Shown here: positions 4,789 through 25,084 of the stretch, piece after piece
How the letters are laid out: each line of letters begins with the position of its first letter
How positions within the stretch are numbered: the first letter of the stretch is position 1
Assembly: GCA_005524015.1 (NCBI GenBank)
Contig: SULG01000002.1
Coordinates: forward strand, 4,221-36,220
Length of the DNA: 32,000 nucleotides
Direction of reading: 5' to 3'
Source: Candidatus Jettenia ecosi
GTDB taxonomy: Bacteria; Planctomycetota; Brocadiia; Brocadiales; Brocadiaceae
Translations under genes and position numbers: made by a program
The notes under the pieces: model-generated
What the model was told of the DNA's origin: nothing
Database searches by the model: none
The model's input: the letters and a program-made list of their open reading frames with translations, nothing else

Positions 4789-4805
4789 GAAAGATTATCC
4801 CGCTA

Positions 4806-5339: not shown

Positions 5340-5460
5340 ATGATAAGCTGTGTAGAAAAAGTAAAAGTATTTCTCGTTGAAGGGTATGAGATAAATTACT
5401 CAAATTACTTCTATTGCTTGGTATCCTGGCTATAGTTTGTTTTAATCTCAGGGAGGATTG

Positions 5461-7164: not shown

Positions 7165-7197
7165 CCATTCCTTAATCTCTATCTTCCTCACGCATAT

Positions 7198-7242
7198 GTG
7201 TCATGTCACAGTGCGTGGCAAGACACTCCTGTGTCATGTCAC
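7198..7242. promoter_or_regulatory. Cluster B of the palindromic sites
   Basis: GTGTCATGTCAC at 7198-7209 and 7231-7242, with degenerate GTGGCAAGACAC at 7215-7226 (17/16-bp spacing). The cluster starts 34 nt after the paralog-2 stop. Confidence 0.5.
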
Positions 7243-7661
7243 ATTTCATGTTGGTAAAATAGGTACGATAATCTGATCCTGAAAGTGTCTGTTAATAGCT
7301 TTATCTATTTACTATGAAATGAGATAAGAATATTCTATTCCGGTGTTATACATAATGAATTCATGATGAAATTCATCGTGTAGATTAAGAGTCAATTCTG
7401 GTTGAATGTTGTGTCATCTTACCCATGATTCTGGATTATCGATCATGTTAGAAAAACCATACTTATGTAGCCTTATGATTTAGTATCTTTTAGCACAAAA
7501 GGTATGGAAGACTTTTCCTGCAGTAAATGAAATTTCATAAGGTTATATGTTAGCTAAATTTATGTACACACCATATTGAAATTCTGCCAAAATTTAGCGC
7601 TTTAAATCAACGATATAAAGTCTTTTTCTTTTCTCTGTTTCCTCTTTGCGTTTGTACATTA

Positions 7662-8861: not shown

Positions 8862-8970
8862 TTTTGTTGTCTAATAGCGGGACACAGATTAACACAGATA
8901 AGTACAAAATGTAGCGAAAGTTGATCTTTGGTTGTATGCAAATGTAGGGAACATACGGAACCTTAAACAT

Positions 8971-9052
8971 GTCATTGCGAGGGGTATTTTCCCGAAGCAA
9001 TCTCTTTTGAAATGTCCAAGGGATTGCTTCGGACAATACCCCTCGCAATGAC
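8971..9052. repeat. Nested-palindrome intergenic element, copy 3 of 3 (inverted)
   Basis: Same arms as the other copies. The asymmetric TATTGTCCGAAGC segment is on the opposite side, showing inverted orientation. Lies 110 nt after the HD-GYP stop. Confidence 0.85.
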
Positions 9053-9197
9053 ACAGCCCCATGCAGTTGAACCGATACAAATCGTATTATCATGAATTAT
9101 ATTGACAGTGTACTGGTCTGATCAGAACGTTCGGTATCGTCGTATTTCCTAACACAAGTTTAAAATCTGGAGTACCTTCGAAAGAGGATAATAGTAC

Positions 9198-9476
9198 ATG
9201 AGAACCAATAAATTCTTTGTATGTCCAAACTGTGGCAATATCAAAAAATTTAAAGTATTTATGAGTAATTTTCAAATAGTTACGCAATCCCCGGAATTAG
9301 GAATACGCATGAATGAAAGCGGTGTTTTGCCTAATTTGCGGCAGGCAGATAATTATATTGAGTGTCAACTATGTTTTAAAAAATCAGAATACGACGCAGC
9401 TGTAAATCTTGGTGAGAAATATATCAAAGACATATCAAATCAACCGAGGGAATTAAGGCGGTATACTGAGATGTAA
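9198..9476 (+). CDS. Small hypothetical zinc-ribbon protein (CPNC...CQLC)
   Basis: 92-aa ORF with SD AGAGGA about 9 nt upstream of the ATG and two CxxC pairs. No recognisable family. Confidence 0.5.
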   Translation: MRTNKFFVCPNCGNIKKFKVFMSNFQIVTQSPELGIRMNESGVLPNLRQADNYIECQLCFKKSEYDAAVNLGEKYIKDISNQPRELRRYTEM

Positions 9477-9864
9477 CAAGTAGTTAATCTGACAAAGCAA
9501 AATGTATGTTATGCATACAGTGTTGTATGATTTAAAAACAGATAAACATACATATAAAGATTTTATTTTAGAATACTTATGATAATTTATAGGTAAAACA
9601 GTATGAACAACATACAGAAAGTACGAATAAAAATTTCTCTTTATGGAAAAGGGATACTCCAATAAATTAAATACATGTATTGTAATAAGTTATATTTTAA
9701 ATAGTTATACATTATCCTTATAAAAATTTTCACATAAGGCATTTCCTGGCAAGTACATTGCTTATGATGGGATGGCAATGTTATACAGCATTAAAAATAA
9801 TTTTGCATGGTATCTTGTTTCGGGTGTCTGTTTGAAGAAATAAACAAGATTAATAAAAGATGCA

Positions 9865-10857
9865 ATGAAACTAATTGAAAACTATAAAAAAATAAGAGTT
9901 GTGAATAAAGCGTTAAATACAGCGCCAAATCATGTGAAGATGGAAGTAAACCATTATGCCCTTGTTGAAACATTTGTAGATGCTATTATATCGGCAAATC
10001 AGGAAGGGTGTATTGTTTACTGTAACCCTGCGGCAAAAAAGATGTTTGGATATCAGGAAGAAATCATTGGTTGCGATATTACCATCCTTATGCCTGAACG
10101 ATATCGGCTAAAATATCAAATAGGTATGACGAAGTACATAAATACAGGGCTAACAAGGATTATGGGACAAACCATAGAGTTAGTTGGTTTAAAGAAGGAT
10201 GGTATTGAATTTCCCATAGAGTTATCTGTATCGGCATGCGTGGTTGATGATCGATATTTTTTTACCGGTATTATCCGGGATATTACTGAAAGAAAGTGTA
10301 CGGAGTCTAAACTCCTTGAATCTAACAGGAAATTGCAAGAGCTTTCTATTAAGGATAGTTTAACGAATTTATATAATCGGCGTCATACCTTTCATGTAAT
10401 GGAAATTGAATTCAACAGGGCAAAAAGATATCAAAACTCTCTCTCATGTTTAATGATCGATATAGATTATTTTAAAAATATCAATGATATTTATGGTCAT
10501 CCCTTTGGAGATAAAGTACTCATACATTTTTCCTCCTTTTTACTCAATATGATACGCTCTACCGATATAGTTTCCCGGTATGGAGGTGAGGAGTTTCTTG
10601 TTATTCTTCCTGATGTAGATATAAAGGGCGCTACGGACTTTGCTGAAAGATTACGGGAAGCCGTATCTAGACATACTATAGAGGATAAAGAAAGGAATAT
10701 AAATGTGGCGTTGAGCATTAGTGTTGGAGTCAGCTCTTTTACCGATAGCACACTTAATAAAGAAGAAATAATAAGCCTGGCAGATAAAGCCCTTTACGAG
10801 GCCAAGCGATCGGGAAGAAACAGAGTTTGCTGTATTCAAACTTGTAAGACTGTTTAA
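9865..10857 (+). CDS. PAS-domain diguanylate cyclase (GGDEF)
   Basis: PAS segment ending 'IRDITERK'. GGDEF domain with active site 'RYGGEEF' and I-site 'RSTD' five residues upstream. Confidence 0.9.
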   Translation: MKLIENYKKIRVVNKALNTAPNHVKMEVNHYALVETFVDAIISANQEGCIVYCNPAAKKMFGYQEEIIGCDITILMPERYRLKYQIGMTKYINTGLTRIMGQTIELVGLKKDGIEFPIELSVSACVVDDRYFFTGIIRDITERKCTESKLLESNRKLQELSIKDSLTNLYNRRHTFHVMEIEFNRAKRYQNSLSCLMIDIDYFKNINDIYGHPFGDKVLIHFSSFLLNMIRSTDIVSRYGGEEFLVILPDVDIKGATDFAERLREAVSRHTIEDKERNINVALSISVGVSSFTDSTLNKEEIISLADKALYEAKRSGRNRVCCIQTCKTV

Positions 10858-10922
10858 AAAGCATAACTGTATCCGTATCTTTAAAACACTAAGAGGAACA
10901 CAAGACGTAGAGACGCAAGGTT

Positions 10923-10948
10923 TAGAGACGCAAGATTTTGCGTCTCTA
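10923..10948 (+). terminator. Hairpin TAGAGACGCAA-GATT-TTGCGTCTCTA after the GGDEF gene
   Basis: 11-bp perfect stem with a 4-nt loop, 66 nt after the stop. It is preceded by a direct half-copy (TAGAGACGCAAG at 10908-10919). No U-tract follows, so terminator function is uncertain. Confidence 0.4.
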
Positions 10949-10962
10949 CAGAGGAATGAACC

Positions 10963-11148
10963 CCATATGCATCAAGCTAACATGTGTAAACGGTGAAGAA
11001 TAACATAATCCCCCTTTAGAAAAGGGGGAAATCCAATCCCCCTTTGATCCCCCTTTAAAAAAGCTTATCCTTACCCACATCTTTTCAATCCCTTGCGGGT
11101 TCAATTTTGTAAATTGAACCCCTATATTTTGCATAGTCGATAGCTCAT
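10963..11148. repeat. Composite of dispersed repeats (inverted copies of 2084-2132 and 4730-4788, plus CCCCCTTT/AAAGGGGG motifs)
   Basis: 10969-11017 is the reverse complement of 2084-2132 (1-2 mismatches). 11090-11148 is the reverse complement of 4730-4788. CCATATGCATCAAGC is also found at 1776. Confidence 0.8.
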
Positions 11149-11426
11149 AGCGTTTTCATGGTTAAATACATAAGGAAATATTCCAAATTGAGGGTTCAGG
11201 TTATAAACCCGAACCCGCCCAAGGATCGATCATTGATCAGATTATCGTTCGAATGTCAGGTTCCATAACAATAATGCAAGCCCGAAGAGCGGCATGATTA
11301 TAGAGAATGCACTACGAGAGAATTTTAAGCAGTTGAAATTGTCATTGACATTAATTTTGTAAACTTGTAAAATGCCATTTTCTCAGTGACAGATACTTGT
11401 ATGATAAGTAGTTACAATAATTCCCA

Positions 11427-11822
11427 TTGTTGCATGAAATAAATATGTATATTGGCATTGATATAATAGAAATAAAACGTATTGAGAGATTATTTTCTTC
11501 TAATGAGGGTTTTCTGAGGAAAATTTATACGGAAAAAGAAGTAGAATACTGTAATCAAAAAAAGAATAAGTATCAGCATTTTGCAGCACGTTTTGCTACC
11601 AAAGAGGCTGTATTCAAGGCGTTAGGGACAGGCTGGATAGGCGCTATGAAATGGACAGATATTGAGTTGTTAAACGACGAAATGGGAAAACCGTATTTGA
11701 ACCTTTATGGAAGTGTAAAAGAACTGGCAAATAAAAAGAATATTAACAATATTTCCGTATCAGTATCCCATTGCCGGGATTATGCTATTGCTCAGGTATT
11801 ATTAGTGCCGGGTAGTATGTGA
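11427..11822 (+). CDS. acpS: Holo-[acyl-carrier-protein] synthase (AcpS-type 4'-phosphopantetheinyl transferase)
   Basis: 'IGIDIIEIKRI' N-terminus and 'FATKEAVFKALG' motif, with AcpS-like size. The track start is TTG at 11427. The ATG at 11445 (MYIGIDI...) is the more likely start. Confidence 0.85.
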   Translation: MLHEINMYIGIDIIEIKRIERLFSSNEGFLRKIYTEKEVEYCNQKKNKYQHFAARFATKEAVFKALGTGWIGAMKWTDIELLNDEMGKPYLNLYGSVKELANKKNINNISVSVSHCRDYAIAQVLLVPGSM

Positions 11823-11912
11823 AAATCTCAAACAGGGAAAAGTATAAAGGGTATCGATGTGATTTTTATAGATAAGTTTTGACAATACTTACTAACGCCA
11901 GAGGGAACTTTC

Positions 11913-13391
11913 ATGAAAAAACTCGTACTGATTAATCCTCATCCGATTGGAAATGTTGGGGAGGAAAATGTATCTGTGCTAAATCAAATGCCGGTGAATC
12001 TCGGTTATCTTAAGAGATTGACACCGCGGCATTGGCAGGTTGATATTATTGATGAGACCCAGGAGCTTGCTATTGATAGCGCAGGAAATATTACTTTCAG
12101 TGGGGCAGATCTGGTGGGTATTACATCGGTGAGTTATCAGGCTCATCGCGCCTACCAAATAGCTACTGCCTGCAAAAAAAAAGGCATACCTGTCATTATG
12201 GGCGGAATTCATGCTACGAGCTATCCGGAAGAGGTTGCAAAATATGTGGATTGTGTTGTTACGAGAGAGGCTATAACAATCTGGGAAAAGATACTGGCTG
12301 ATTTTGAAAATGGTGTTCTTCAAAAGAGATACGATGGTAATCTGACACCTATGGAGCTTTATCGTGATCTGAGGTCCGATAGGGAATATTTGAAGAATAA
12401 ATACAAATATAGATATTCAGGCATCATAACGACGGCCGGATGCCCGTTTAGTTGCGAGTTTTGTTCTGTTCCTCAATTTCAGGGTAAAAAATATCGGGAA
12501 AGGCCTGTTGAAGACGTCCTGGATGAATTAGAATCCATTAAGGGTCAATATCGTGGCCTGATATTAACGGATGAAAACTTTTATGGACATAGTAAAAAAT
12601 CCAACGAGCGTGTTCGTGCACTTTTCAAGGGTATGGTAGAAAGAGGTATTTATCAAAACTGGTTTGGTTTTACCTCTCTTAATATTTACTCAGATGACGA
12701 AACCCTTGAATATATGGTCAGGAGTGGATGCGTTGGGATGCTTATTGGAATTGAATCTATCAACGAAGAAGCCCTGAAAACCATGAATAAGAATGTGAAT
12801 TTGCGTATCTCAATAGAGAAGTACTTCGAGGCAATTGCTAACATCCGTAAACACGGTCTTGCTGTATGGGGGACTATGGTTTTCGGAAACGATGCCGATA
12901 CGCCTGAGACATTTAAGCAAGTTGCTGATTTTGTCTTGGATTCTCATGTAGATATTATGACGTGCGGTATTTTATGTCCATTTATTAACACGCCGCTTTA
13001 TCATAGATTAAAAAGCGATAATAGACTTTTTCGGACAAATTTTCCTGAGGACTGGAAGTACTATACATCTCATCACCTTACCTATATCCTCAAAAATATG
13101 TCTCTCCAGGAGCTTATTGATGGCTTTCAATATCTCTATGATAAAATTTATGCTACGGAGGTGTTACGGCAAAGATTCCAGAATGCTAAGGACGTGTTGA
13201 GTAAGAATATGAATGCCGCTATGTTTGCATTCAGGGTCAATTTAGATTGGCAGAACGTGTATCAGCACCTGATCCAAAATTTAAAAGCATTGCAGGTATC
13301 GGGATTTTACGATAGGGTCCTGAAGCTCTATAATGAATCGGAAAGACAAGGGGAAAAAACATCATTGACGCCAATTGAGGTCCCATCATAA
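11913..13391 (+). CDS. B12-binding-domain radical SAM enzyme (class B rSAM)
   Basis: N-terminal flavodoxin-like B12-binding-type segment ('DLVGITSVSYQAHRAYQIATACKKKGIPVIMGGIHAT'). Radical SAM cluster motif CxxxCxxC in 'AGCPFSCEFCSVPQF'. SD AGAGGGA upstream. Confidence 0.85.
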   Translation: MKKLVLINPHPIGNVGEENVSVLNQMPVNLGYLKRLTPRHWQVDIIDETQELAIDSAGNITFSGADLVGITSVSYQAHRAYQIATACKKKGIPVIMGGIHATSYPEEVAKYVDCVVTREAITIWEKILADFENGVLQKRYDGNLTPMELYRDLRSDREYLKNKYKYRYSGIITTAGCPFSCEFCSVPQFQGKKYRERPVEDVLDELESIKGQYRGLILTDENFYGHSKKSNERVRALFKGMVERGIYQNWFGFTSLNIYSDDETLEYMVRSGCVGMLIGIESINEEALKTMNKNVNLRISIEKYFEAIANIRKHGLAVWGTMVFGNDADTPETFKQVADFVLDSHVDIMTCGILCPFINTPLYHRLKSDNRLFRTNFPEDWKYYTSHHLTYILKNMSLQELIDGFQYLYDKIYATEVLRQRFQNAKDVLSKNMNAAMFAFRVNLDWQNVYQHLIQNLKALQVSGFYDRVLKLYNESERQGEKTSLTPIEVPS

Positions 13392-13450
13392 AACCTGTCA
13401 ACGATGGAAGCTTATTCTCATGGTCTTTTTACGTTATATTAACAATTAAC

Positions 13451-13501
13451 AGGTCAACGTATCCACGGGAGATGAGTGAATACGTTGACCTCTGTTGTTT
13501 T
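13451..13501 (+). terminator. Rho-independent-type terminator after the radical SAM gene
   Basis: Perfect 12-bp stem AGGTCAACGTAT (13451-62) / ATACGTTGACCT (13480-91) with a 17-nt loop, followed by the T-rich CTGTTGTTTT. Confidence 0.5.
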
Positions 13502-13762
13502 ACCAGTTAAAATAGATATACCAGTAGAGTTCATAATTACAGAAAATAGCGCACGGGCAAGAATGGAGCATAGGTTATGCCATCCACAAAGGATAAATCA
13601 AGAAGCAGGGAGTTTGATATAATCGCTTTTATCGAGGCACTGAAAGAGGTTTACGATTACTTTCCCGAGTATAAAGGAAAAAGAATAATTCCCATATTTT
13701 CTTCCCTTTCTATTTTACTTGAGTAATTACAATTTTAACAACCTACGAATGAGGTATTATTT

Positions 13763-14995
13763 CTGATTACTGAAAAAAATAAGTCAAAAGTAGTAATTAC
13801 CGGATTAGGACTGGTTACCCCTGTTGGGATAGGTGTTCAAAAAAGTTGGGAATCTTTTATCCATGGCTGCGATGGAGCTAATGAGATGAAGTCGTTCGAT
13901 ACCTCCCGGTACAAGGTTCACCGTTCTTGTGAGGTAAAGGATTTTCATCTGGATGTTGAATTAGAGAACCAGATAAAGGAAAACACCATCCATAAATATG
14001 TTTATTATGCAGCCCGGGAGGCGTTACAGGAAAGCGGTTTGTTGCATGATAAGAGCAGTTTTGATAAGGAACGTTTTGGTATTGCTATGGGAACCTTAGC
14101 TGCTGAATTAACACCTCATGAAAGACTTTTACGATTACATGCCTCAAAAAAAGATAACGGTTTTGATAAGATTGTCGCTGCTGTTTATCCTCCGAATTCT
14201 ATTACGAATATCCTTGCTCAATATTTTCACTTTGAAGGGCCTGCCATGGTCTCACTGAATGCCTGTTCTTCAGGTAATCATGCCATTGCATGGGCTTACG
14301 ACCTTCTTAGAGAAAATAAGGTAGATGTTGTAATGGTTGGTGGAGGGGATATGATCCCTCAAACGGAATTTACTCATTTCCATAATCTCAAAGCGCTTGC
14401 TCCTGAACACTGTCAGCCTTTTGATAAAAACAGGCAAGGACTCATGATTGGAGAAGGAGCCGGTATCTTGATCATGGAACGTTATGAATTTGCCAGGAAA
14501 AGGGGGGCGGTTATTATTGCTGAAATGGCGGGTTATGGATTAAGCTGTGATGGATTCCATATGACAGCGCCTCATCCGGAAGGTGAAGGTGCTGTAAAAT
14601 GTATGGGTGATGCGCTAAAAATGGCAAGGCTTTCTCCGTCTGATATTGGCTATATCAATGCACATGGTACGGGTACGCCACATAATGATAAGGCGGAGAC
14701 TATTGCTATAAAACACTTGTTCAAAGATCATGCTTATACCATTCCCTGCAGTTCTACAAAATCCATGATAGGCCATCTTATGGGTGCAGCAAGCGCTGTA
14801 GAATCTGTTATATGCTGTCTTGCATTACGATACGGAATATTGCCTCCGACAATTCATTACCATACACCTGATCCGGAGTGTGACCTTGATTACTTACCTA
14901 ACAGGGCGCGGGAGTTAACCGTTCAGCATGTTTTAAATAACTCATTTGCCTTTGGTGGTAATAACGCTACCACGATATTCAGTAAAATAGAATAG
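13763..14995 (+). CDS. Beta-ketoacyl synthase, FabF/KS-alpha type, catalytically complete
   Basis: Cys-His-His triad present: 'NACSSGNHAI', 'FHMTAPHP', 'NAHGTGTPHNDKAE', plus 'KSMIGHLMGAA'. The track ORF starts at ATG 13886, but the same frame is open from 13739 and encodes the conserved KS N-terminus 'KVVITGLGLVTPVGIG'. No ATG/GTG/TTG is available, so the proposed start is CTG 13763 with SD GAGG 8 nt upstream. Confidence 0.85.
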   Translation: MITEKNKSKVVITGLGLVTPVGIGVQKSWESFIHGCDGANEMKSFDTSRYKVHRSCEVKDFHLDVELENQIKENTIHKYVYYAAREALQESGLLHDKSSFDKERFGIAMGTLAAELTPHERLLRLHASKKDNGFDKIVAAVYPPNSITNILAQYFHFEGPAMVSLNACSSGNHAIAWAYDLLRENKVDVVMVGGGDMIPQTEFTHFHNLKALAPEHCQPFDKNRQGLMIGEGAGILIMERYEFARKRGAVIIAEMAGYGLSCDGFHMTAPHPEGEGAVKCMGDALKMARLSPSDIGYINAHGTGTPHNDKAETIAIKHLFKDHAYTIPCSSTKSMIGHLMGAASAVESVICCLALRYGILPPTIHYHTPDPECDLDYLPNRARELTVQHVLNNSFAFGGNNATTIFSKIE

Positions 14996-15008
14996 TCTTT
15001 ACATACGT

Positions 15009-16238
15009 ATGAAACGAAGAGTCGTAGTTACAGGAATAGGGATTGTATCACCTCTTGGATTTACCAAAGAGGATTTTTGGAATAACCTCATAGAGGGAAA
15101 ATCGGGCATTGTGCCAATGACATCTCTTGATCTCTCACCCTATACATGCAAGCTTGGCGGAGAGGTTAGAGACCTTCATCCCGAGATCTATCTTGGCAAT
15201 AAAGGTTTGAAGTACTTACATAAAGGCACAAGGTTCTTAGGGTCGGCCACGAAGATGGCGCTTGATGATGCAAAGTTACCACAGGATAGTTCTTTATCGG
15301 ATCAAATAGGTGTGGTTATTGGGTCGTCTTTAGGCAATTTTTCTGAAACAACAGATTATTTCTATGAGATTATCAGAAATAATCCTTCAGAATTATCGCC
15401 GATGGTCAGCTATGATGTTGCATTAAATTCTTCAATTAACTACGTTTCTGTTACCTTTAAGATAAAAGGACTTGCACGGACTATATCAGCAGGTTTCACA
15501 TCAAGTGCGGATGCGATAGGGAATGCATATGGTATAATTCAGCGAGATATGGCCAAAGTTATTGTTGCGGGCGGAGTCGAGCAGATTTCCATCGATCTGT
15601 ATCTCATATTTTACCTGCGGGGTCTCTTATCAGGTCTCGATGGCACAAAGGAGGCTAGTTTACCCTTCGATAACAAAAGGAATGGTTTTGTAATGTCTGA
15701 AGGCAGTTATGTAGTTATTCTCGAAGAGCTTCAGCATGCTCTGGACAGAGGAGCGCCTATCTACGCAGAAGTAAGAGGCTTTGGAAATGCCTTTGTAGGT
15801 GGTAAAAATTATTCGAAAGAGGAAAGGGCGCGCCGTGTTGAAAGGGCTATGTACAGCGCCTTAGAAGAAGCAGATATTAAGAAAGAAACTATTGATCTTA
15901 TCAGCGCAAATGCAAATGGATGCAAGATGCAGGATGCTATTGAAGCACAGACAATCCAATCCTTTTATGGCTCAAAGGGCAATGATATTCCTATCTCGGC
16001 AATAAAATCGAATATGGGTGAATCTTATGGCGCCGCAGGCGCTGCTCAGTTTATTTCTGCTGTCATGTCTATACATACCGGCACAATACCCCACATCATC
16101 AATCACAACGAAAAAGATCCGAAAGTTAATCTGAATCTTATCCTGCAGAATCCCGTCAGGAAAGAAATTCAAAATGCAATGGTAAACACCATGGATTACG
16201 ATGGAAATAATTCATGTTTGGTGATAAGTAAATTATGA
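15009..16238 (+). CDS. Ketosynthase-like protein lacking the catalytic triad (chain-length-factor / KS-beta-like)
   Basis: KS fold throughout (MKRRVVVTGIGIVSPLG...). By eye against E. coli FabF, the active-site Cys position is Phe ('SAGFTSSADAIG'), the HxTAP His is absent ('GFGNAFVGGKNY'), the second His is Asn ('SANANGCKMQD') and the KSxxGH His is Glu ('KSNMGESYGAAG'). Confidence 0.85.
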   Translation: MKRRVVVTGIGIVSPLGFTKEDFWNNLIEGKSGIVPMTSLDLSPYTCKLGGEVRDLHPEIYLGNKGLKYLHKGTRFLGSATKMALDDAKLPQDSSLSDQIGVVIGSSLGNFSETTDYFYEIIRNNPSELSPMVSYDVALNSSINYVSVTFKIKGLARTISAGFTSSADAIGNAYGIIQRDMAKVIVAGGVEQISIDLYLIFYLRGLLSGLDGTKEASLPFDNKRNGFVMSEGSYVVILEELQHALDRGAPIYAEVRGFGNAFVGGKNYSKEERARRVERAMYSALEEADIKKETIDLISANANGCKMQDAIEAQTIQSFYGSKGNDIPISAIKSNMGESYGAAGAAQFISAVMSIHTGTIPHIINHNEKDPKVNLNLILQNPVRKEIQNAMVNTMDYDGNNSCLVISKL

Positions 16239-18259
16239 GCAAACTGTTTGAAGAAATACCTGTCGGTCAGATGACAGTAAAAAACAGGATAATCATGTCT
16301 GCCATGGATTTGGGATTTACTTCTGACGGTACAGTGAATGACCGGATTATTCGTTTTTACGAGGATCGTGCCAAAGGCGGTGTCGGCCTCATTGTTGTAG
16401 GCGGTTGTTATCCGGAAATAAATGGCAAGGTTTGGAAGAGTATTATTGGATTAGACAAGGATGAGCTTATTCCGGGATTACGAAGATTGACAGATACTGT
16501 TCATGCCTATTATCAGGTGCGTATCGCCGCTCAGTTGCTTCACGGTGGCCGCAGCGCCTCATCCTTCTTTACAAAAATGCAGCCTGTTTCTCCCTCTCCC
16601 CTGGTGCACAGAAGTATCAAACAGGAACCTCATGCCCTGACAGTTTCAGAGATTAAAACGGTTATCGGTAATTATGTCAGCGCAACCGTAAGGGCAAAAA
16701 AGGCCGGCTTCGATGCCGTGGAGCTTCACGGTGGCATGGGATACCTCATTAATCAATTCCTTTCAAAGGCTACTAATAAGCGTGATGATGAGTATGGTGG
16801 AAGTCTTGAAAACAGGGTTCGTTTTGCCAGGGAGATAATAATCGCCATAAAAGAAGCCGTTGGGAAGGACTACCCCATCATCTTTCGAATGTCAGGAGAT
16901 GATCTTGTTGCGGAAGGGCTCAAAATAGATGAGAGTCTGGAAATTGCCCGGATGTTAGAGCAATCAGGCGCTGATGCCTTTAACGTATCTCCTGGCTGGC
17001 ATGAAAGCAGAACGCCTATCCTGTCAATGATTATTCCACGGATGGCTTACACCTTTCTTTCACAAAGGATCAAATCATGCGTAAAAGTTCCGGTAATTGC
17101 CTCAGTCAGAATAAACGATCTTACCTTGGCCGGAGAGATCTTAGACAATGAGCAGGCAGACATGGTATCCCTTGGCAGACCACTCATCGTAGATCCTGAT
17201 CTGCCGAATAAATATAAAAACGGGCAATTTGATGATATCAGAACATGCATTGCTTGTAATCAGGGTTGCTTTGATTCTTTGCTGAATTTTAAATCCGTTT
17301 CCTGTACGTATAATGCAATGGCAGGGCATGAAGGTGAATATAAAATAATTCCATCGGGCAAACCGAAAAAGGTGGTGGTCGTAGGTGGAGGACCTGCCGG
17401 TATGGAAGCTGCCCGTGTTTTGGCATTACGGGGACACAGGGTTACCTTGTATGAGAGGAAAAAACACCTGGGTGGTCAATTACGGTATGCCTTTATTCCT
17501 CCGGGACGTGAAGAAATACAAAATATTATCACCTACCTGGAAAAACAGATTTTCAGGCTTAAGGTACATATAAAAATCGGAAAAGAGGCTGATTTACAAA
17601 CGTTACAGGAGGAACATCCCGATGCCATAGTTGTAGCCACGGGCGGAAATCCTGTCATGCCCGACCTTCCCGGTATAAAAGGGAAACAGGTGTATACAGC
17701 AAGTACTATATTGGAGGGAAAAGTTTTATCGGGAAAGGACGTGGTCATACTTGGCGGTGGAACTGTAGGATGTGAGGTGGCGTTGCACATAGCCAAACAG
17801 GGAACAATGAGGCCTGATGTGGCTTGTTTTCTGTTAAAACACAAGGTGCTCAGCGACAGGGATGTCATTGAATACACTACAAGGGGAAATAAGAGTGTCA
17901 CCATTCTGGAAATGAAAAAGAAAATAGGTGGCGGATTTGGTATTTCCACACGATGGGTTATTCTCAATGAATTAAAAGATGCGGGGGTAAAAGAAATAAC
18001 AGAAGTGCGGGTGAAGGAAATAATAAATACGAATGAAAATGGCAGAAAAACGGAAGGCGTCGTTTATGAAAAGGGCGGAAAAGATTATTTTATCAAGGCC
18101 GATACCGTTATTATTGCTGTCGGGTACAGTCCTTATAACGATATACAAAAGCAGATAGAAGGAAAGTTTCCGGAGATGTATTGTATTGGTGATTGCGTTA
18201 AGGTTCGCACTGTATTAGAAGCTATTCACGAAGGTTTTGAAGTCGCCTTAAAGATATAA
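16235..18259 (+). CDS. 2,4-dienoyl-CoA reductase (FadH)-like flavoprotein: OYE-type FMN barrel + 4Fe-4S + FAD/NAD(P)H domain
   Basis: 'ELHGGMGYLINQFLS...NKRDDEYGGSLENRVRF' (old-yellow-enzyme barrel). Cys cluster 'CIACNQGCFDSLLNFKSVSC'. Dinucleotide fold 'VVVVGGGPAGMEAA' and a second 'VVILGGGTVGCEVA'. The ATGA start overlaps the upstream stop. Confidence 0.9.
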   Translation: MSKLFEEIPVGQMTVKNRIIMSAMDLGFTSDGTVNDRIIRFYEDRAKGGVGLIVVGGCYPEINGKVWKSIIGLDKDELIPGLRRLTDTVHAYYQVRIAAQLLHGGRSASSFFTKMQPVSPSPLVHRSIKQEPHALTVSEIKTVIGNYVSATVRAKKAGFDAVELHGGMGYLINQFLSKATNKRDDEYGGSLENRVRFAREIIIAIKEAVGKDYPIIFRMSGDDLVAEGLKIDESLEIARMLEQSGADAFNVSPGWHESRTPILSMIIPRMAYTFLSQRIKSCVKVPVIASVRINDLTLAGEILDNEQADMVSLGRPLIVDPDLPNKYKNGQFDDIRTCIACNQGCFDSLLNFKSVSCTYNAMAGHEGEYKIIPSGKPKKVVVVGGGPAGMEAARVLALRGHRVTLYERKKHLGGQLRYAFIPPGREEIQNIITYLEKQIFRLKVHIKIGKEADLQTLQEEHPDAIVVATGGNPVMPDLPGIKGKQVYTASTILEGKVLSGKDVVILGGGTVGCEVALHIAKQGTMRPDVACFLLKHKVLSDRDVIEYTTRGNKSVTILEMKKKIGGGFGISTRWVILNELKDAGVKEITEVRVKEIINTNENGRKTEGVVYEKGGKDYFIKADTVIIAVGYSPYNDIQKQIEGKFPEMYCIGDCVKVRTVLEAIHEGFEVALKI

Positions 18260-18316
18260 CACATTTTTACCCCAGATAGACACAGAAAAGCAGAGATAAC
18301 AATAAGGGTTTTGACA

Positions 18317-19123
18317 ATGAAAGATATCCGCATGAATCGTGGTGATAACTCCGGTTATGATCACATTGAATTCGAGGAAATCAGGGCACATAATGGTAAG
18401 GCCATCGGTATTATTTATCTGAAAAAACCTCCACGAAACTCTATAGGCTCATGGCTTCTGGATGCCCTCTATGATAAGATGGATCAGTATGAGGGTGATG
18501 AAAGGGTGGGCGCTATTATTATTGCCAGTAAACTAAGGAGCGTCTTTAGTGACGGCGCTGACCGTGATGAGCTCTTTGGCGCCTGGATATCGGGTCTTGT
18601 AGCTGATAAGAACTATGAACGGTTTCATCGCGCTCATGAGATGTTTGTGGAGATTGAAAATTGTAAAAAGCCTGTTATTGCTGCCATAAACGGAGTTACG
18701 ATCGGCGCTGGTTTAGAGCTTGCTATGCTGTGTGACCTGCGTATTGCATCTGAACTTTCCTTTTTCAGCCTGCCAGAGGCAAAGCCTGAACTGAGTATTA
18801 TTCCCGGTCTTGGAGGCACGCAGCGTTTGCCCCGTTATATCGGTATGGCGCGTGCTAAGGAGATGCTGTTTTTAGGAAAGATGATCCGTGCTGAGACCGC
18901 TTTGGAATGGGGTCTCATTAATCAAATTTCACCTCATAAAGAGGTTATAGACCATGCCGTAGTTTTGGCAGAAACGCTGTTAGAACGAGATGCAAGGGCG
19001 CTCAAAGAGATGAAGAAATGTATCAACTTTGCGGGAGAGAACGATATCCTGAAAGGTATCGAATATGAGGTAGGTCTCTTTGCAGAGATGATGCGATTAA
19101 AATTTTCGAATAAGGGTAAATAA
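18317..19123 (+). CDS. Enoyl-CoA hydratase/isomerase (crotonase) family protein
   Basis: 'AAINGVTIGAGLELAMLCDLRIA' and 'LPEAKPELSIIPGLGGTQRL', so both catalytic Glu positions are present. ATG 18317 with SD AAGGG 8 nt upstream (the track starts at TTG 18311). Confidence 0.9.
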   Translation: MKDIRMNRGDNSGYDHIEFEEIRAHNGKAIGIIYLKKPPRNSIGSWLLDALYDKMDQYEGDERVGAIIIASKLRSVFSDGADRDELFGAWISGLVADKNYERFHRAHEMFVEIENCKKPVIAAINGVTIGAGLELAMLCDLRIASELSFFSLPEAKPELSIIPGLGGTQRLPRYIGMARAKEMLFLGKMIRAETALEWGLINQISPHKEVIDHAVVLAETLLERDARALKEMKKCINFAGENDILKGIEYEVGLFAEMMRLKFSNKGK

Positions 19124-19195
19124 GGCATATTTTTGAAAATGCTTCCCATATTTTTTACCTTATAAAGAAAAACGACTAATCAAAAGGAGGTAATT

Positions 19196-19939
19196 ATGGA
19201 GTTCAAGGATACCGTAGCAATTGTTACAGGTGGTACCCGGGGTATAGGCAAGTCAATCGCATTGGAACTGGCAAAAAACGGCTGCAACATAGCCTTTAAC
19301 TACAATAAAAATACCGATGCCGCCCATCTTCTGGTAAAGGAAATTGAATCGATGGGTACCAAGGCCATTTCTTTCCAGGTAAATGCAGCCAGTTTTGAAG
19401 GCGCTAAGAATATGGTAAAAGAAGTGAAGGATAGATTTGGAAAGATTGATTTCCTGGTAAATAATGCCGGTATTACCCGTGATAAACTCCTCGCTTTAAT
19501 GGCAGAGAATGATTGGGACGATGTTATCAATACCAATCTCAAAAGTGTTTATAATTTTTCTAAATCGGTGATTACCCAGATGATCAAACAAAAATCCGGT
19601 AGTATCCTGAATATAACCTCAGTAAGCGGAATAACGGGAATAGCGGGTCAGGTAAACTATTCTTCCTCCAAGGCCGGTATGATAGGATTTACCAAGGCCC
19701 TTGCCAAAGAGGTGGGGAAGGCAAATATTACGGTAAATGCGATAGCCTGCGGCTTTATTGAAACAGATATGACGGCAGTTTTACCTCAGGAATATAAGGA
19801 TAAAATGATTGAGATGATTCCGGTAAGAAGATTTGGCACACCTGATGATGTTGCCAAAGCCGCGATTTTCCTGTTATCAGACCATGCTAAATACATTACC
19901 GGTCATGTAATTAGTGTCGATGGTGGTTTAGCAATGTAG
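19196..19939 (+). CDS. fabG: 3-oxoacyl-[ACP] reductase (SDR family)
   Basis: 'TGGTRGIGKSIA', 'NNAGITRD', catalytic 'YSSSKAG' and FabG-like length. Strong SD AAGGAGG. Confidence 0.9.
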   Translation: MEFKDTVAIVTGGTRGIGKSIALELAKNGCNIAFNYNKNTDAAHLLVKEIESMGTKAISFQVNAASFEGAKNMVKEVKDRFGKIDFLVNNAGITRDKLLALMAENDWDDVINTNLKSVYNFSKSVITQMIKQKSGSILNITSVSGITGIAGQVNYSSSKAGMIGFTKALAKEVGKANITVNAIACGFIETDMTAVLPQEYKDKMIEMIPVRRFGTPDDVAKAAIFLLSDHAKYITGHVISVDGGLAM

Positions 19940-20016
19940 AAAGAGAGTGGAGTCCTGATTCCTGCAGGAAACGTTACCGTACTGTTGCACCTATTGTAAA
20001 TTGAAAGGTAAAGACT

Positions 20017-20328
20017 ATGCTATTTTTATTAAAAGTTGAAATAAAACAAATGCCTCCTTTGCCGGTAAAAGACTTTTTGGAATATGTGATAAAAGAATGG
20101 GAATATTTTTCACGATTTCAAAGGCGTGGCAAGATTATAGCAGGTGGGAAATTGGCCGGTAAGAGGGGGGCTGCGGCTATAATCGATGCTGAATCCAATG
20201 AAGAGATGGAAGAGATCGTCTCAAAATTACCGCTCTTTCCGTTCTTTACCGATATAGAAATCACGCCCCTTGTGCCTATGGAGAAGGCGCTTCTGGATAC
20301 CAGGAGGATTCATTCGCTGATGAAGTAG
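20017..20328 (+). CDS. Muconolactone delta-isomerase-fold (dimeric alpha+beta barrel) small protein
   Basis: 103 aa. 'MLFLLKVEI...' N-terminus and 'AAIIDAESNEEMEEIVSKLPLFPFFTDIEITPLVP' match the MIase-like family pattern by eye. Last gene of the co-directional lipid cluster. Confidence 0.6.
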   Translation: MLFLLKVEIKQMPPLPVKDFLEYVIKEWEYFSRFQRRGKIIAGGKLAGKRGAAAIIDAESNEEMEEIVSKLPLFPFFTDIEITPLVPMEKALLDTRRIHSLMK

Positions 20329-20333
20329 CGGCG

Positions 20334-21620
20334 CTAATGTTGAGGATGGTCCGTATGATGAAAAATTCCAAATAACTTTTTGATGGTTTCCACATATCGA
20401 TATCCACCTCCGTTTTTCGCCTCTTGTTTTGCTACCTTTGCCGGGTGGTGAAGGAGTTTATTAATGGTACGTTCAATAGTATAAACAACTTGTTCCCATT
20501 CTCCATCTTGCATGTTTTTCAGTTTTGGTTTTAAACGATTTAACTCTTCCCTGCCGATCGCATGAAAATGATTCCGCAACAGGGTTATTGCAGGTTCTAT
20601 CTTTATTTCCTCAAGCTTTGCCATAAAATGTTCTACTTCCTCTTCAATAATACTACGGCATTTTTCTATCTCTCTGGTTCGCTCATCGATGTTTTGGCTT
20701 ACGACAGATTGTAAATCATCAATGTTGTAGAGATATACATTGTCAATTTTGGCAATATCAGGTTCAATATCTCTTGGAACGGCAATATCTATGAGGAATA
20801 TAGGATTTCCCCTCCGGTGTTTAATGGCCTCTTTTATCTGCTGGGTATGAATCACATAGTGAGGAGCGGAGGTGGAGCTAATAATAATATCAGCCTTTGC
20901 GAGGTATTCTCCCAGTAATTCATATTTAATGGCCTGGCCATGGTATGTGTGAGCAAGTTCCTGTGCACGTTCAAATGTGCGGTTTGCAACCACGAATGTA
21001 CGCGCTCCTTCTTCATACAGATGCTTTATGAGGAGTTCGCACATTTCACCGGCGCCTACCACGAGAACTATTTTTCCGGTAAAATCCTGAAATATTTTTT
21101 CGGCAAATTCTACTGCTACAGAACTTATAGAGACCTTTCTCTTTCCAATAGAAGTTTTCGTATGCACGATTTTAGCGACATTGAGCGCCTGCTGAAATAG
21201 CTGATTAAGAACCTTTCCTGTGGATTCCTGCAAAGACGCTATGGTGTAAGCTTCTTTAACCTGTGACAGGATTTGTGATTCTCCTAATACCATAGAATCA
21301 AGACTGGTAGTGACAAAGAAAAGATGATTAACCGCCCGGCCATCCTTGTTATGGTACATATAAGGGGAAAAAACAGGTAACTCAACCTTGTGGAAATCAG
21401 CAAGGAATGAAAGGACATCCTCTGCCTGAATAGCGCCATCTAAAGAGGATACATATATTTCAACCCGGTTACAGGTCGATAAGATAACAGCTTCTGCCTT
21501 TTGATATTTTTGAAGAAAACAGGATAAAGCTGTGGGAATATTATTAGCATTAAAAGCAAGTTTTTCTCTAACCTCTACAGGGGCTGATTTATGGTTCAAC
21601 CCTACAACTAAAATACTCAT
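20334..21620 (-). CDS. hemA: Glutamyl-tRNA reductase
   Basis: 'ILVVGLNHKSAPVEVREKLAF', catalytic Cys in 'STCNRVEIY', Rossmann 'VLVVGAGEMCE'. ATG at 21620 with SD AAGGA (the track starts at TTG 21626). Confidence 0.95.
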   Translation of the reverse strand: MSILVVGLNHKSAPVEVREKLAFNANNIPTALSCFLQKYQKAEAVILSTCNRVEIYVSSLDGAIQAEDVLSFLADFHKVELPVFSPYMYHNKDGRAVNHLFFVTTSLDSMVLGESQILSQVKEAYTIASLQESTGKVLNQLFQQALNVAKIVHTKTSIGKRKVSISSVAVEFAEKIFQDFTGKIVLVVGAGEMCELLIKHLYEEGARTFVVANRTFERAQELAHTYHGQAIKYELLGEYLAKADIIISSTSAPHYVIHTQQIKEAIKHRRGNPIFLIDIAVPRDIEPDIAKIDNVYLYNIDDLQSVVSQNIDERTREIEKCRSIIEEEVEHFMAKLEEIKIEPAITLLRNHFHAIGREELNRLKPKLKNMQDGEWEQVVYTIERTINKLLHHPAKVAKQEAKNGGGYRYVETIKKLFGIFHHTDHPQH

Positions 21621-21675
21621 GTCCAATCCTTAGTCAAATAGAAACGATATAGAATTTCGGTTGCAGCCTAATTTT

Positions 21676-22545
21676 TTATTGAATATGTAAAATCTTTGTA
21701 TGAGATTGTTCGTTGACATTCTGAAAGGCATGTTTAGACCCCATAAAGAAGGTACCGATAAAGGTAAAAAGCACAAGGCAAAAACCTGCAATAGTCAAAC
21801 ATGCGATCTTTGTGCCGTGAAAAGATGCGACAAGGCGCATATGCAGCAACGCTGCGTATATGAGCCAGGTTGCCAAACCAAGAATAACCTTGTAATCCAA
21901 ATACCACATCTCGCCTAAAATATTTTGTGTTTTTACCCAAAAAGTACCAAATACAAGTCCTAAGGTGAGGAGAGGAAAGCCAAAAGAAATTGTTTTCCAC
22001 ATAAGCTTGTCAATTCCTTCCAATGAGGGCAATTTATTGAAAAGAGGGCCAAATAACTTATGTTTTAATTGTCTTTGCTGTGTTAAATACATGATACTCA
22101 GGCTAAAGGATATGGTAAAGGCGGCGTATCCTACAAATATAGGGATAATATGCGCTATAAGCCAAAAGTTCTGAAGATGCACGGTAATGAGCAGATTTCC
22201 TCCATCAAATGTAAGCGCCCATAGTGAAAGCGCTGTAACAACAGGAATTAAAAAAGTATCCAGAGAGGGTAATCTGTAAAGATAATCCAGGTTGATGTAA
22301 ACAAAGAGAATACACCAGAGTAATGATATGAAGGATTCGTATACATTGGTTATCGGGATATTGCTTGATTCAAAACCCAGGAATACCAGAAAACCGCTGT
22401 GAATAAAGAATCCCATCATCATAGACCACTTGACTACTTTTCTATTGAAAGCATGCGGTTTTACGATGGATCCTATAGACCATACCGAAGATATGAAATA
22501 GAGGATTATAACAATTATAAAAGGAGTATGTGGTAACGATATCAT
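21676..22545 (-). CDS. Cytochrome c assembly family membrane protein (CcsA/HemX-like)
   Basis: Polytopic membrane protein immediately upstream of hemA, as in hemA-hemX type arrangements. The Trp-rich region 'FGTFWVKTQNILGEMWYLDYKV' looks like a degenerate WWD-type motif. ATG at 22545 is preferred over TTG at 22584. Confidence 0.7.
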   Translation of the reverse strand: MISLPHTPFIIVIILYFISSVWSIGSIVKPHAFNRKVVKWSMMMGFFIHSGFLVFLGFESSNIPITNVYESFISLLWCILFVYINLDYLYRLPSLDTFLIPVVTALSLWALTFDGGNLLITVHLQNFWLIAHIIPIFVGYAAFTISFSLSIMYLTQQRQLKHKLFGPLFNKLPSLEGIDKLMWKTISFGFPLLTLGLVFGTFWVKTQNILGEMWYLDYKVILGLATWLIYAALLHMRLVASFHGTKIACLTIAGFCLVLFTFIGTFFMGSKHAFQNVNEQSHTKILHIQ

Positions 22546-22716
22546 ATTCCTAGATAATTTAAGGGATAAACATTCATTAATCAACCAAAATCTTAAAACA
22601 TCATCTTAATTTTTGCATTTTTTTTATTTGACAAAGACACGGTTGTCCGATAACCTAAGATTCTATCGTACTATGAACGTAATTATCTGAAATAATGTTC
22701 ATATTGAGGAATTGTC

Positions 22717-22953
22717 ATGGATGAAAATATAAAGAAGATAACGAAAAAGACCAGTATTGGGGATGTGATTAAGCAATATCCTGAGACGGAACCTGTTATA
22801 AAAAAATATTTCGGTTCCGGTTGTTTTACATGTCCAGGCTCAAAGATGGAAGACATTTCATTTGGCGCCACGATGCATAATATTGATCCTGATATTGATC
22901 CTGAAGTAATTATTAAAGAATTGAATGAAGTTATTAGTAAGAAAAAAGGTTAA
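22717..22953 (+). CDS. DUF1858-type redox-disulfide small protein
   Basis: 'IGDVIKQYPETEPVIKKYFGSGCFTCPGSKMEDISFGATMH' has the family-typical CxxC and layout. SD GAGGAA. Confidence 0.7.
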   Translation: MDENIKKITKKTSIGDVIKQYPETEPVIKKYFGSGCFTCPGSKMEDISFGATMHNIDPDIDPEVIIKELNEVISKKKG

Positions 22954-22985
22954 CTATTTCATAACATAATCAAGGAGATTGATCA

Positions 22986-23204
22986 ATGAGAGAAAAAGTA
23001 GAAGAAGCGCTTAATCATATTAGACCTGCACTTCAGGCGGATGGTGGTGATATTGAATTAGTAGATATAGAGGGAGGTATTGTGAAGGTGCGCCTGAAAG
23101 GAGCTTGCGGAACTTGCCCAAGCGCGCTCATGACGCTAAAGTATGGTGTGGAAGAACGTCTTAAAGAAGAGATCCCTGAAGTAGAATCTGTGGAACTTGC
23201 ATAG
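22986..23204 (+). CDS. NifU C-terminal-domain (Nfu-type) Fe-S scaffold/carrier protein
   Basis: 'IRPALQADGGDIELVDIEGGIVKVRLKGACGTCPSALMTLKYGVEERL' is the classic Nfu motif with CxxC. Confidence 0.9.
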   Translation: MREKVEEALNHIRPALQADGGDIELVDIEGGIVKVRLKGACGTCPSALMTLKYGVEERLKEEIPEVESVELA

Positions 23205-23367
23205 TTCGGTTTTATTTTGTTAATAGTTTACCGCAGAGTTATGGAAGATTTTATAGAAAAGATAACAAATGAATTGTGTGCTTCTTTAAGAAAAACAAAT
23301 TCTTGTATTGCATTATCCTCTGCGGTAGGCTTATCCTTATGAGAATACTACTATTAAGGAGTTTTAC

Positions 23368-24045: not shown

Positions 24046-24052
24046 ATAAGGC

Positions 24053-25078: not shown

Positions 25079-25084
25079 TACATT

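Follow-up and report, generated by a model that had tools for sequence, protein, structure and literature searches.

What does an anaerobic ammonium-oxidizing (anammox) bacterium build with a set of genes that places two ketosynthase-like proteins, a flavin-dependent reductase and a cobalamin-type radical enzyme side by side? The question is raised by eight co-directional genes at positions 11427-20328 (plus strand) of a 32,000-nucleotide stretch of Candidatus Jettenia ecosi DNA (contig SULG01000002.1, positions 4,221 to 36,220; the whole stretch is hereafter called the window). They encode, in this order, the holo-acyl carrier protein (ACP) synthase AcpS, a cobalamin-type (class B) radical S-adenosylmethionine (rSAM) enzyme, an active ketosynthase (KS), a catalytically dead KS-like protein (KSL), a FadH-type flavoprotein, a crotonase, a FabG-type reductase and a small protein with the muconolactone isomerase (MIase) fold. 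Anammox bacteria produce ladderanes, acyl chains of fused cyclobutane rings whose biosynthesis has been unsolved since 2002 and was still described as such in reviews and preprints up to August 2026; according to papers of 2023-2026, almost nothing is known of ladderane synthesis, and the field has neither an in vitro nor a genetic system. Our analyses leave us highly confident that the cluster is a specialised anammox acyl-chain pathway distinct from housekeeping fatty acid synthesis (FAS). With much less assurance, though on balance in its favour, we infer that it is a second ACP-dependent type II FAS-like module that takes part in ladderane biosynthesis together with the previously described Cluster I (kuste3603-3608 of Kuenenia stuttgartiensis).

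The preliminary description of the window, made from its sequence alone, held that the source taxon could not be established. This was not borne out, since the KSL protein is 100% identical to a protein of Ca. Jettenia ecosi, with Jettenia, Brocadia and Loosdrechtia as next matches, and the window therefore comes from an anammox, ladderane-producing bacterium. All named close relatives of KSL belong to Jettenia, Brocadia, Loosdrechtia or unclassified Planctomycetes metagenome-assembled genomes (MAGs). The eight co-directional open reading frames (ORFs) listed between 11427 and 20328 are all present, and they carry the Pfam families that had been predicted for them, namely ACPS, B12-binding plus Radical_SAM (with DUF4070 in addition), ketoacyl-synt and Ketoacyl-synt_C in two proteins, Oxidored_FMN plus Pyr_redox_2, ECH_1, adh_short and MIase. 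When seven of the genes were compared with those of Jettenia sp. (locus L006) at the codon level, most of the differences turned out to be synonymous (31 synonymous versus 10 non-synonymous differences in the KS gene; the FadH-like gene was omitted, its length differing by one codon between the two genomes). These seven genes are thus under purifying selection and are not chance ORFs. An Rfam search of the window detected no riboswitch or other RNA, and hence no cobalamin or SAM riboswitch.

The first four genes are not new to the literature. Four fatty-acid gene clusters of K. stuttgartiensis were listed in 2009 as ladderane candidates, kuste2802-2805 among them (PMC2649909): kuste2802 is an acpS, kuste2803 a B12-radical SAM gene singled out as encoding a possible cyclisation catalyst and kuste2804 a fabF (PMC2649909), whereas kuste2805 was described as a non-canonical ‘fabB’ with Phe163, Asn298, Lys328 and Glu333 (PMC2649909, Table 2). 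We translated the first 128 codons of the synthetic genes given in Table S2 of PMC4790861 and found, over these 128 residues, that AcpS, rSAM, KS and KSL are 73, 82, 79 and 80% identical to the products of kuste2802, kuste2803, kuste2804 and kuste2805, respectively. Because of this 73-82% identity, genes 1-4 of the window are orthologues of kuste2802-2805; they occur in the same order, acpS, B12-radical SAM, fabF, non-canonical fabB, and KSL has the same Phe, Asn, Lys and Glu. The Kuenenia genes were published as a ‘complete cluster’ of four, whereas the window has four more genes directly after them; a decayed inserted ORF and the loss of the canonical KS start, both treated below, are features of Jettenia. 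The part of the preliminary description that proposed a candidate ladderane assignment thus stands, given the anammox genus and the orthology with kuste2802-2805, whereas its novelty and its specific chemistry are not supported: the cluster was published in 2009, tested in 2016 without a product, and has been cited in reviews.

The active KS (13763-14995), with Pfam N- and C-terminal KS domains and an intact Cys-His-His triad, is the kuste2804 orthologue and a paralogue of amxFabF2 of Cluster I. The KSL gene (15009-16238) follows 13 nt after it and encodes the kuste2805 orthologue, a paralogue of amxFabFmut. As first noted from the sequence, KSL has lost Cys/His/His: Phe, Asn and Glu occupy those columns and the Lys is kept, a Phe/Asn/Lys/Glu set common to the window protein and all aligned anammox orthologues. 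The Gln (KSQ) that classical chain-length factors (CLFs), which decarboxylate malonyl-ACP, have at the Cys position does not occur here, as all window-type dead KS have Phe at that position, whereas the dead KS of Cluster I has Val, Thr or Glu. In the PDB, KS matches 9s5h_B at 406 bits (best canonical FabF, 301 bits) and KSL matches 9s5h_C at 311 bits (best canonical FabF, 231 bits). The PDB record itself does not state which proteins these are, and we identify 9s5h (and 9s5i) as the Cluster I amxFabF2/amxFabFmut heterodimer (kuste3605/3606) from the corresponding preprint and from the active-site residues. In the preprint, amxFabF2/amxFabFmut is shown to be a KS/CLF-like complex with malonyl-ACP decarboxylation activity and a preference for short chains and for the carrier protein amxACP (10.64898/2026.05.19.726425). 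By analogy with these Cluster I paralogues, KSL would be the CLF-like partner of KS in a heterodimer acting on ACP-bound chains.

The relationship of this pair to housekeeping enzymes was addressed with a neighbour-joining tree, in which canonical FabF loci from a motif scan of genome contigs served as outgroup. The tree contains an active-KS clade and a dead-KS clade, both placed outside the six canonical FabF sampled, and each of the two holds one Cluster I-type branch and one window-type branch. Since both clades split in this way, the heterodimer predates the duplication that yielded the two clusters. The fabF equivalog model TIGR03150 gives the same indication as the tree, with 408.3 bits for KS and 319 bits for KSL against a cut-off of 493.75, so that the pair does not fall within housekeeping FabF, the placement that would have spoken for ordinary fatty acid synthesis; KS does pass the broad ‘KAS II’ subfamily model (397 versus 387 bits).

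The resemblance to Cluster I goes beyond the KS pair, as both clusters have an active KS and a dead KS beside a cobalamin-type radical SAM gene. Judged by their sequences, the window KS pair and rSAM are paralogues of their Cluster I counterparts, and the two gene sets look complementary in content. Cluster I comprises ACP, dehydratase, KS/CLF, desaturase-like flavoprotein and rSAM, and the window cluster comprises phosphopantetheinyl transferase, KS/CLF, keto-reductase, crotonase, dienoyl-type reductase, isomerase-fold protein and rSAM; the window lacks the ACP, FabZ and phytoene-dehydrogenase homologue of Cluster I and has instead AcpS, the FadH-type reductase, the crotonase, FabG and the MIase-fold protein. 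In some contigs the two sets are physically joined. A metagenomic contig with 56% G+C (L090, Logan SRR13254584_18761, 1-12202) carries, all in one orientation, a FabZ gene, a Cluster I-type KS pair that scores 602 and 480 bits against 9s5h_B and 9s5h_C, a gene resembling amine oxidases and phytoene dehydrogenases, and an rSAM gene; two further B12-rSAM genes, a window-type KS pair and a crotonase come directly after these, so that three rSAM paralogues are consecutive. In L154, an ACP-FabZ-KS-KSL-amine oxidase-rSAM set is convergent with FabG-MIase at a distance of ~1.6 kb. L131 contains, 9.4 kb past the MIase-fold gene and on the other strand, the 3' half of a B12-rSAM gene of Cluster I-like type (19692-20309); the remainder of that gene extends past the end of the locus retrieved. 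In Kuenenia, transcript levels are 24-35 FPKM (fragments per kilobase per million) for kuste2802-2805, compared with 28-122 in Cluster I and with 60-449 in the housekeeping cluster (PMC4790861, supplementary table).

The dead KS has a narrow distribution. A search of 1.84 billion cluster representatives gave no more than a handful of single-domain proteins with over 40% identity to KSL. One clade of ~40 sequence clusters around P0122/L090 includes a protein labelled Ca. Hypogeohydataceae, and a small clade of five KSL-family clusters is labelled Blastocatellia. Among more distant KSL relatives (P0123, P0125/P0273 and ~30 others), many are proteins of ~800-870 aa with fused KS-KS halves, one of them labelled Candidatus Helarchaeota archaeon.

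The rSAM gene (11913-13391) encodes the best conserved protein of the cluster, with 71-90% identity across anammox orders. Its Pfam domains are B12-binding (38.1 bits, gathering threshold 32.1), Radical_SAM (74.3 bits) and DUF4070; the B12 domain is N-terminal and predicted to bind its cofactor. The motif CPFSCEFC (CxxxCxxC, residues 177-184) holds the sole invariant cysteines among 14 homologues and, because these three alone are invariant, there is no sign of auxiliary clusters. The N-terminus is 82% identical to that of kuste2803, 59% to that of kuste3608 and 20% to that of kuste3342. A NCBIfam model exists under the name ‘rSAM_ladder_B12’ (TIGR04072), and membership in it was rejected (82.7 bits versus a cut-off of 360); this model evidently describes another rSAM. 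Indeed, the enzyme falls in no named NCBIfam family, all matches being far under their cut-offs (at most 94 bits), and the nearest models, at that distance, include the methylases PhpK and HpnR. A PDB search returned no solved structure above 48 bits. The combination of B12-binding domain and radical SAM core is that of the class B lipid rSAMs HpnR (a hopanoid methylase), HpnJ and BchE and of Jaw5, the iterative cyclopropanase of jawsamycin. In the Jaw5-like model, an rSAM enzyme works on an unactivated or enoyl acyl chain in the course of iterative elongation (PMC13459092), and the role proposed below for the window enzyme is similar.

Four further genes lie downstream. The FadH-type Fe-S flavoprotein (16235-18259, 674 aa), of the 2,4-dienoyl-thioester/enoate reductase family, begins in the 4-nt ATGA overlap with the KSL gene (16235-16238) that had been described at this position. 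The alignment with E. coli FadH (1PS9, E 4.6e-110) spans the entire protein, which has Oxidored_FMN, Fe-S linker and FAD/NADPH domains and retains the Cys-x2-Cys-x3-Cys-x11-Cys pattern; this three-domain architecture and Fe-S cysteine motif are common to FadH, 2-naphthoyl-CoA reductase, BaiCD and enoate reductases. In the alignment to 1PS9 the residues of the ‘GY’ and ‘GWHE’ motifs are conserved, and we assign these residues to the proton donors Tyr166 and His252 of FadH. E. coli FadH belongs to a beta-oxidation context, whereas the window gene overlaps a dead-KS gene in a KS cluster. Next comes a crotonase-fold enoyl-thioester hydratase/isomerase (18311-19123, ECH_1 at 164 bits), whose start is likely ATG 18317 according to homologue gene calls. 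Both catalytic Glu positions are kept (GLELAM and SLPE, located by eye), and a PDB search at E <= 1e-35 gave no match. The FabG-type 3-oxoacyl-ACP reductase (19196-19939), a short-chain dehydrogenase/reductase (SDR), scores 321.8 bits on TIGR01830 (cut-off 297.75) and is 40% identical to the N-terminus of kuste3341, the listed fabG of Kuenenia, of which it is a paralogue and not the counterpart. The last gene (20017-20328) encodes the MIase-fold, muconolactone-isomerase-like protein of 103 aa (Pfam MIase at 52.9 bits, gathering threshold 26.7), whose counterparts in L008 and L092, two deep lineages, share 66-67% identity with it. The 75 metagenomic homologues found are nearly always paired with FabG, whose gene lies directly 5' of the MIase-fold gene in nearly every locus with sequence on that side. 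A true muconolactone isomerase CatC was considered and rejected (TIGR03221 at 42.5 versus 130.6 bits, and no catechol-pathway genes nearby). The literature searched contained no paper on this FadH/crotonase extension of ladderane clusters, and a 2024 proteomics preprint names none of its enzymes.

Whether these eight genes form a unit was examined across genomes by combining the neighbourhoods of KSL homologues with a metagenome scan for the MIase-fold protein (75 loci) and tblastn searches of the eight proteins against the loci; in addition, contigs of species genomes were scanned with the pattern RNGF[VI][ML][SAG]EG, which also matches ordinary FabF and has L008, L009 and ~78 canonical FabF loci among the matches listed. 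The full order AcpS-rSAM-KS-KSL-FadH-crotonase-FabG-MIase is found in Jettenia (L006, L093) and in a lineage with ~70% identity in the MIase-fold protein and 56% in KSL (L131 and L136, with L135 and L144 showing the order from an rSAM gene at the contig edge onward; hereafter the ~70% lineage). The same order in seven genes, with no crotonase, occurs in a groundwater Planctomycetota MAG (L008), in L092, labelled Ca. Hypogeohydataceae, a proposed deep anammox order, and in L149 and L151. Core genes followed by FadH are present in L009 (Ca. Subterrananammoxibius), L089 and, with the crotonase as well, L005. Brocadia-like contigs are more diverse in layout: in L100, L101 and L109 the KS-KSL pair is separated by 3.4 kb of other DNA from FadH-crotonase-FabG-MIase, and others (L094, L095, L110, L115, L118 and others) have this four-gene block alone or just FabG-MIase. 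In L001/L002 and L004 unrelated genes lie downstream of the core, and in Brocadia pituitae (L003) the crotonase alone does. In L001/L002 (Brocadia sp. CP054188 and an assembly nearly identical to it), a 215-nt unit that includes a 48-aa ORF on the minus strand is repeated 10.5 times in tandem over 14190-16437, the copies being 95% alike, and this array adjoins an ISL3 transposase gene a few kb past the core cluster.

The order acpS-rSAM-KS-KSL is as in the window in L001-L006, L008, L009 and L092, and acpS opens the cluster in these as well as in L093, L131, L136, L149 and L151; it is absent upstream of the cluster in L089. FadH adjoins KSL in at least nine divergent loci, a junction kept even where KSL is just 50-56% identical (L008, L009, L089, L092, L131 and others), and the two genes overlap in two lineages, by ATGA in Jettenia and by ATGAGTAA in the ~70% lineage. 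Linkage of the crotonase gene is seen in Jettenia, in the ~70% lineage and in Brocadia-like contigs; the seven-gene version of the deep lineages lacks it. Because the downstream genes are linked in Jettenia, in the ~70% lineage and in deep lineages, the simplest reading is a long ancestral cluster that became fragmented in some Brocadiaceae. The seven-to-eight-gene layout would thus probably be ancestral, and the four-gene clusters of Kuenenia and Brocadia type would be fragments of it.

Taken together as a second module working with Cluster I, the eight proteins suggest the following route. AcpS would activate a carrier protein, either amxACP or AcpP, which is proposed to act in trans because no ACP is encoded in the cluster. 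The heterodimer of KS and its dead partner would elongate a short acyl-ACP with malonyl-ACP and set the chain length, FabG would reduce the 3-keto group, and the crotonase (or FabZ of Cluster I where the crotonase is lacking) would dehydrate or isomerise the product. The FadH-type flavoprotein would reduce a C=C bond conjugated to the thioester, a reaction which hints at enoyl or 2,4-dienoyl intermediates. The single-cluster cobalamin-type rSAM would carry out an unusual step on the chain, either radical C-C bond formation or cyclisation, or C-methylation, and the MIase-fold protein might shift a double bond or aid ring closure. The preliminary description had gone further, with a polyene made first and then cyclised by the rSAM and isomerase-fold proteins; we found no evidence for this, and a 2026 review describes the route as unsupported by data.

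Several points weigh against a role of the cluster in ladderane synthesis. Class B radical SAM enzymes are mostly methyltransferases, and FadH and crotonases normally use CoA esters, not ACP esters. The field treats Cluster I, not kuste2802-2805, as central. When kuste2802-2805 were expressed in E. coli in 2016, no new fatty acids appeared and the proteins were mostly insoluble (PMC4790861), and no experiment ties any of the eight genes to ladderanes. Several Brocadia-like genomes, and Loosdrechtia as well, have the core and the downstream block in separate places, from which it follows that operon-level co-function is not obligatory. Finally, a Blastocatellia-labelled MAG (L088, DASRDY010000236.1, 8799-15133) carries a KS (51% identity) and a dead KS (42%, with Phe/Ser/Lys/Glu), together with two rSAM paralogues, one window-type (59%) and one Cluster I-like (53%), and a DUF374 gene that is oriented the other way. 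We know of no ladderanes from Acidobacteriota. This MAG contig otherwise has typical non-planctomycete neighbours. The module may have been acquired horizontally here in minimal form, or related lipid chemistry may exist outside anammox bacteria. The two computable observations that the preliminary description had named as refuting, a gene set common outside ladderane producers and a KS pair within housekeeping FabF, were not made, and both tests thus favour its reading: the dead-KS family is almost confined to anammox bacteria. A relative of the core triad nevertheless exists in this MAG, and the module is strongly enriched in anammox lineages yet not strictly exclusive to them.

These points bear on an alternative that we consider unlikely but that survives best, namely that the cluster makes non-ladderane, methyl-branched anammox fatty acids, with the rSAM as a C-methyltransferase that modifies an unactivated chain carbon and with a chain supplied or finished by the KS/CLF pair and the reductases. 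Methyl transfer is the commonest chemistry of class B rSAM enzymes, and anammox bacteria contain mid-chain methyl-branched acids (the literature searched yielded no usable paper on them). The closeness of methylases PhpK and HpnR among the NCBIfam models, though far below cut-offs, points in the same direction, as does the occurrence in the Blastocatellia-labelled MAG, which fits a less exotic product; Kuenenia also lacks FabA (PMC2649909), so that the usual olefin-methylation route would be unavailable. By contrast, mid-chain methyl acids occur in many other bacteria, whereas the dead-KS family is nearly anammox-only. The rSAM is moreover a close paralogue of the Cluster I rSAM, with the two modules contiguous in L090 and adjacent in L154, and a KS/CLF pair, a dienoyl-type reductase and an isomerase-fold protein exceed the needs of a single methylation.

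A second alternative concerns the unity of the cluster and draws on the interval between the rSAM and KS genes. The rSAM stop lies at 13391. A hairpin followed by CTCTGTTGTTTT, a T-rich run, at 13451-13491 is a candidate terminator, in line with the one that the preliminary description had noted between acpS-rSAM and the rest; its folding energy is -24.7 kcal/mol (z -4.9 versus shuffles), it is kept in Jettenia sp. L006, and owing to its long loop it escaped a simple terminator scan. A promoter-like site (13485-13513) overlaps the 3' side of the hairpin. The gap had been put at 370-490 nt, and these sizes are right (371 nt to CTG 13763 and 494 nt to ATG 13886), but the interval is not empty: DNA alignment with Jettenia sp. 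L006 reveals at 13577-13726 a 49-codon remnant of a 217-aa coiled-coil ORF. In L006 this ORF is intact (8034-8687), whereas four deletions affect the window copy; it carries a coiled-coil EFKDEMK repeat and is absent from other genera, where the spacing between rSAM and KS genes is merely ~10-170 nt. We read the remnant as a lineage-specific insertion, now decaying and lying outside the pathway.

The same region accounts for the two possible KS starts. The KS frame is open and conserved from ~13757, and KVVITGLGLVTPVGIG, the conserved N-terminus, is encoded in frame ahead of ATG 13886, which is therefore internal to the gene. There is no ATG, GTG or TTG start upstream of it in the KS frame. 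In other genera KS begins with M-x-K-V-V-I-T-G, and Jettenia has AAG at that start codon; the TTG used as start in the Jettenia sp. L006 gene call is TTA here, also in an independent Logan assembly. The canonical start has been lost, and GAGG at 13751-13754, 8 nt ahead of CTG 13763, suggests that translation begins at this rare codon (or at ATT 13766).

The hairpin, the promoter-like site and the decayed ORF split acpS-rSAM from the rest (though not KSL from FadH) and could thus indicate two unrelated neighbouring units, an acpS-rSAM-KS-KSL lipid module and a CoA-dependent FadH-crotonase-FabG-MIase unit devoted, for example, to the degradation or remodelling of unsaturated acyl-CoA. FadH and crotonase are classical auxiliary enzymes of beta-oxidation, the downstream block or FabG-MIase stands without the core in many Brocadia-like contigs, and unrelated genes follow KSL in L001/L002 and L004. 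Nevertheless, we hold this division to be improbable, since the KSL-FadH junction is kept at 50-56% KSL identity, with a stop/start overlap in two lineages, and within the window no acyl-CoA dehydrogenase, thiolase or CoA ligase lies beside the block. The SDR also passes the cut-off of the FabG equivalog, an ACP reductase, and FabG-MIase adjoins a Cluster I-type set in L154.

KS/CLF pairs are, in turn, a hallmark of aryl-polyene, flexirubin and type II polyketide synthase (PKS) pathways, and the cluster might make a pigment or polyene as a secondary metabolite and not a membrane lipid. In the type II PKS, aryl-polyene and ishigamide systems, KS/CLF is a heterodimer in which the inactive KS homologue shapes the tunnel, and it works iteratively and ACP-dependently, properties that are predicted for the window pair. 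More distant relatives of the pair lie beside ApeI/ApeP-like dehydratases (L091), and the SDR scores on the flexirubin FlxB model, although under its cut-off (267.6 versus 340). Yet we find a pigment pathway highly improbable. Unlike PKS and aryl-polyene clusters, the 32-kb window has no cyclase/aromatase, no ApeI/ApeP dehydratase or other Ape-type gene, no ACP, no aromatic starter ligase and no LolA/MMPL-type export. The dead KS has Phe and not the Gln of type II PKS CLFs, and KS and KSL are less similar to actinorhodin KS/CLF than to FabF. Throughout the anammox lineages the cluster retains 50-90% identity, as a core function would, and it contains the only acpS listed for the organism (Rattray et al., PMC2649909). 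Ordinary housekeeping fatty acid synthesis, to which acpS, a bona fide FabG-type reductase and a KS passing the ‘KAS II’ model might point, can be set aside as barely credible, since Kuenenia has a separate canonical fabH-fabD-acpP-fabF cluster (kustd1386-1391, 60-449 versus 24-35 FPKM), KS fails the fabF equivalog model and branches with amxFabF2 outside the sampled FabF, and the dead KS, B12-rSAM, FadH-type reductase and MIase-fold protein have no role in FAS II.

The acpS gene that opens the cluster occupies 11427-11822 and encodes a 4'-phosphopantetheinyl transferase (Pfam ACPS at 71.4 bits; NCBIfam acpS TIGR00516 at 103.6 bits, cut-off 59.8). Homologue gene calls place its likely start at ATG 11445. 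The best promoter-like site of the region (TTGACA-17-TAAAAT, 11345-11373, plus strand, 11 of 12 consensus matches) lies 5' of it; such sites are consensus matches alone, and their number is not above shuffled expectation. Further upstream, the intergenic region 10900-11125 contains a perfect 12-nt inverted repeat (10907-10918 and 10938-10949), two occurrences of the motif ATCCCCCTTTA(G/A)AAAAG (at 11008 and 11047) and two terminator-like hairpins, at 11009-11029 (minus strand) and 11097-11121 (plus strand). A dense block of signalling genes fills 42-10857. It comprises genes for a PAS histidine kinase (42-1343), for a tandem pair of sigma-54-dependent response regulators with 77% identity to each other (2783-4486 and 5458-7164), for a PAS/HD-domain protein (7662-8861) and for a PAS-GGDEF protein (9865-10857). 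Comparable genes are found ahead of the cluster in Jettenia sp. L006 and, in part, in Brocadia pituitae L003. On the other side, 20334-26233 holds genes unrelated to lipids, with the same neighbours in Jettenia sp. L006: the glutamyl-tRNA reductase gene hemA (20334-21626, minus strand), convergent with the MIase-fold gene and 5 nt away from it, and genes for a cytochrome c assembly protein (21676-22584, minus strand), a ThiF/MoeB-like protein (24053-25078) and a cysteine desulfurase-like aminotransferase (25085-26233).

Although the core of this cluster was already a known ladderane candidate, we believe that the extended ancestral cluster, its paralogous and complementary relationship to Cluster I, the contigs that carry both sets physically joined and the non-anammox homologues are new. 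A bolder proposal, which we regard as doubtful, is that the eight genes supply the half of the ladderane machinery that has so far been missing and form with Cluster I one iterative pathway in which two paralogous rSAM enzymes close the cyclobutane rings. If this were true, ring closure would take place on enoyl- or dienoyl-ACP, the FadH-type and MIase-fold enzymes would reduce and reposition the remaining double bonds, and past heterologous attempts would have failed partly because they omitted four partner genes. These four add activities that Cluster I lacks, namely a keto-reductase, a dehydratase/isomerase, a dienoyl-type reductase and an isomerase-fold protein. The gene set for reconstitution is thereby redefined, in a concrete and testable way, as Cluster I plus these eight genes, and the Blastocatellia-labelled MAG and the contig with 56% G+C designate organisms in which ladderane-like lipids may be sought or the ladderane assignment falsified.

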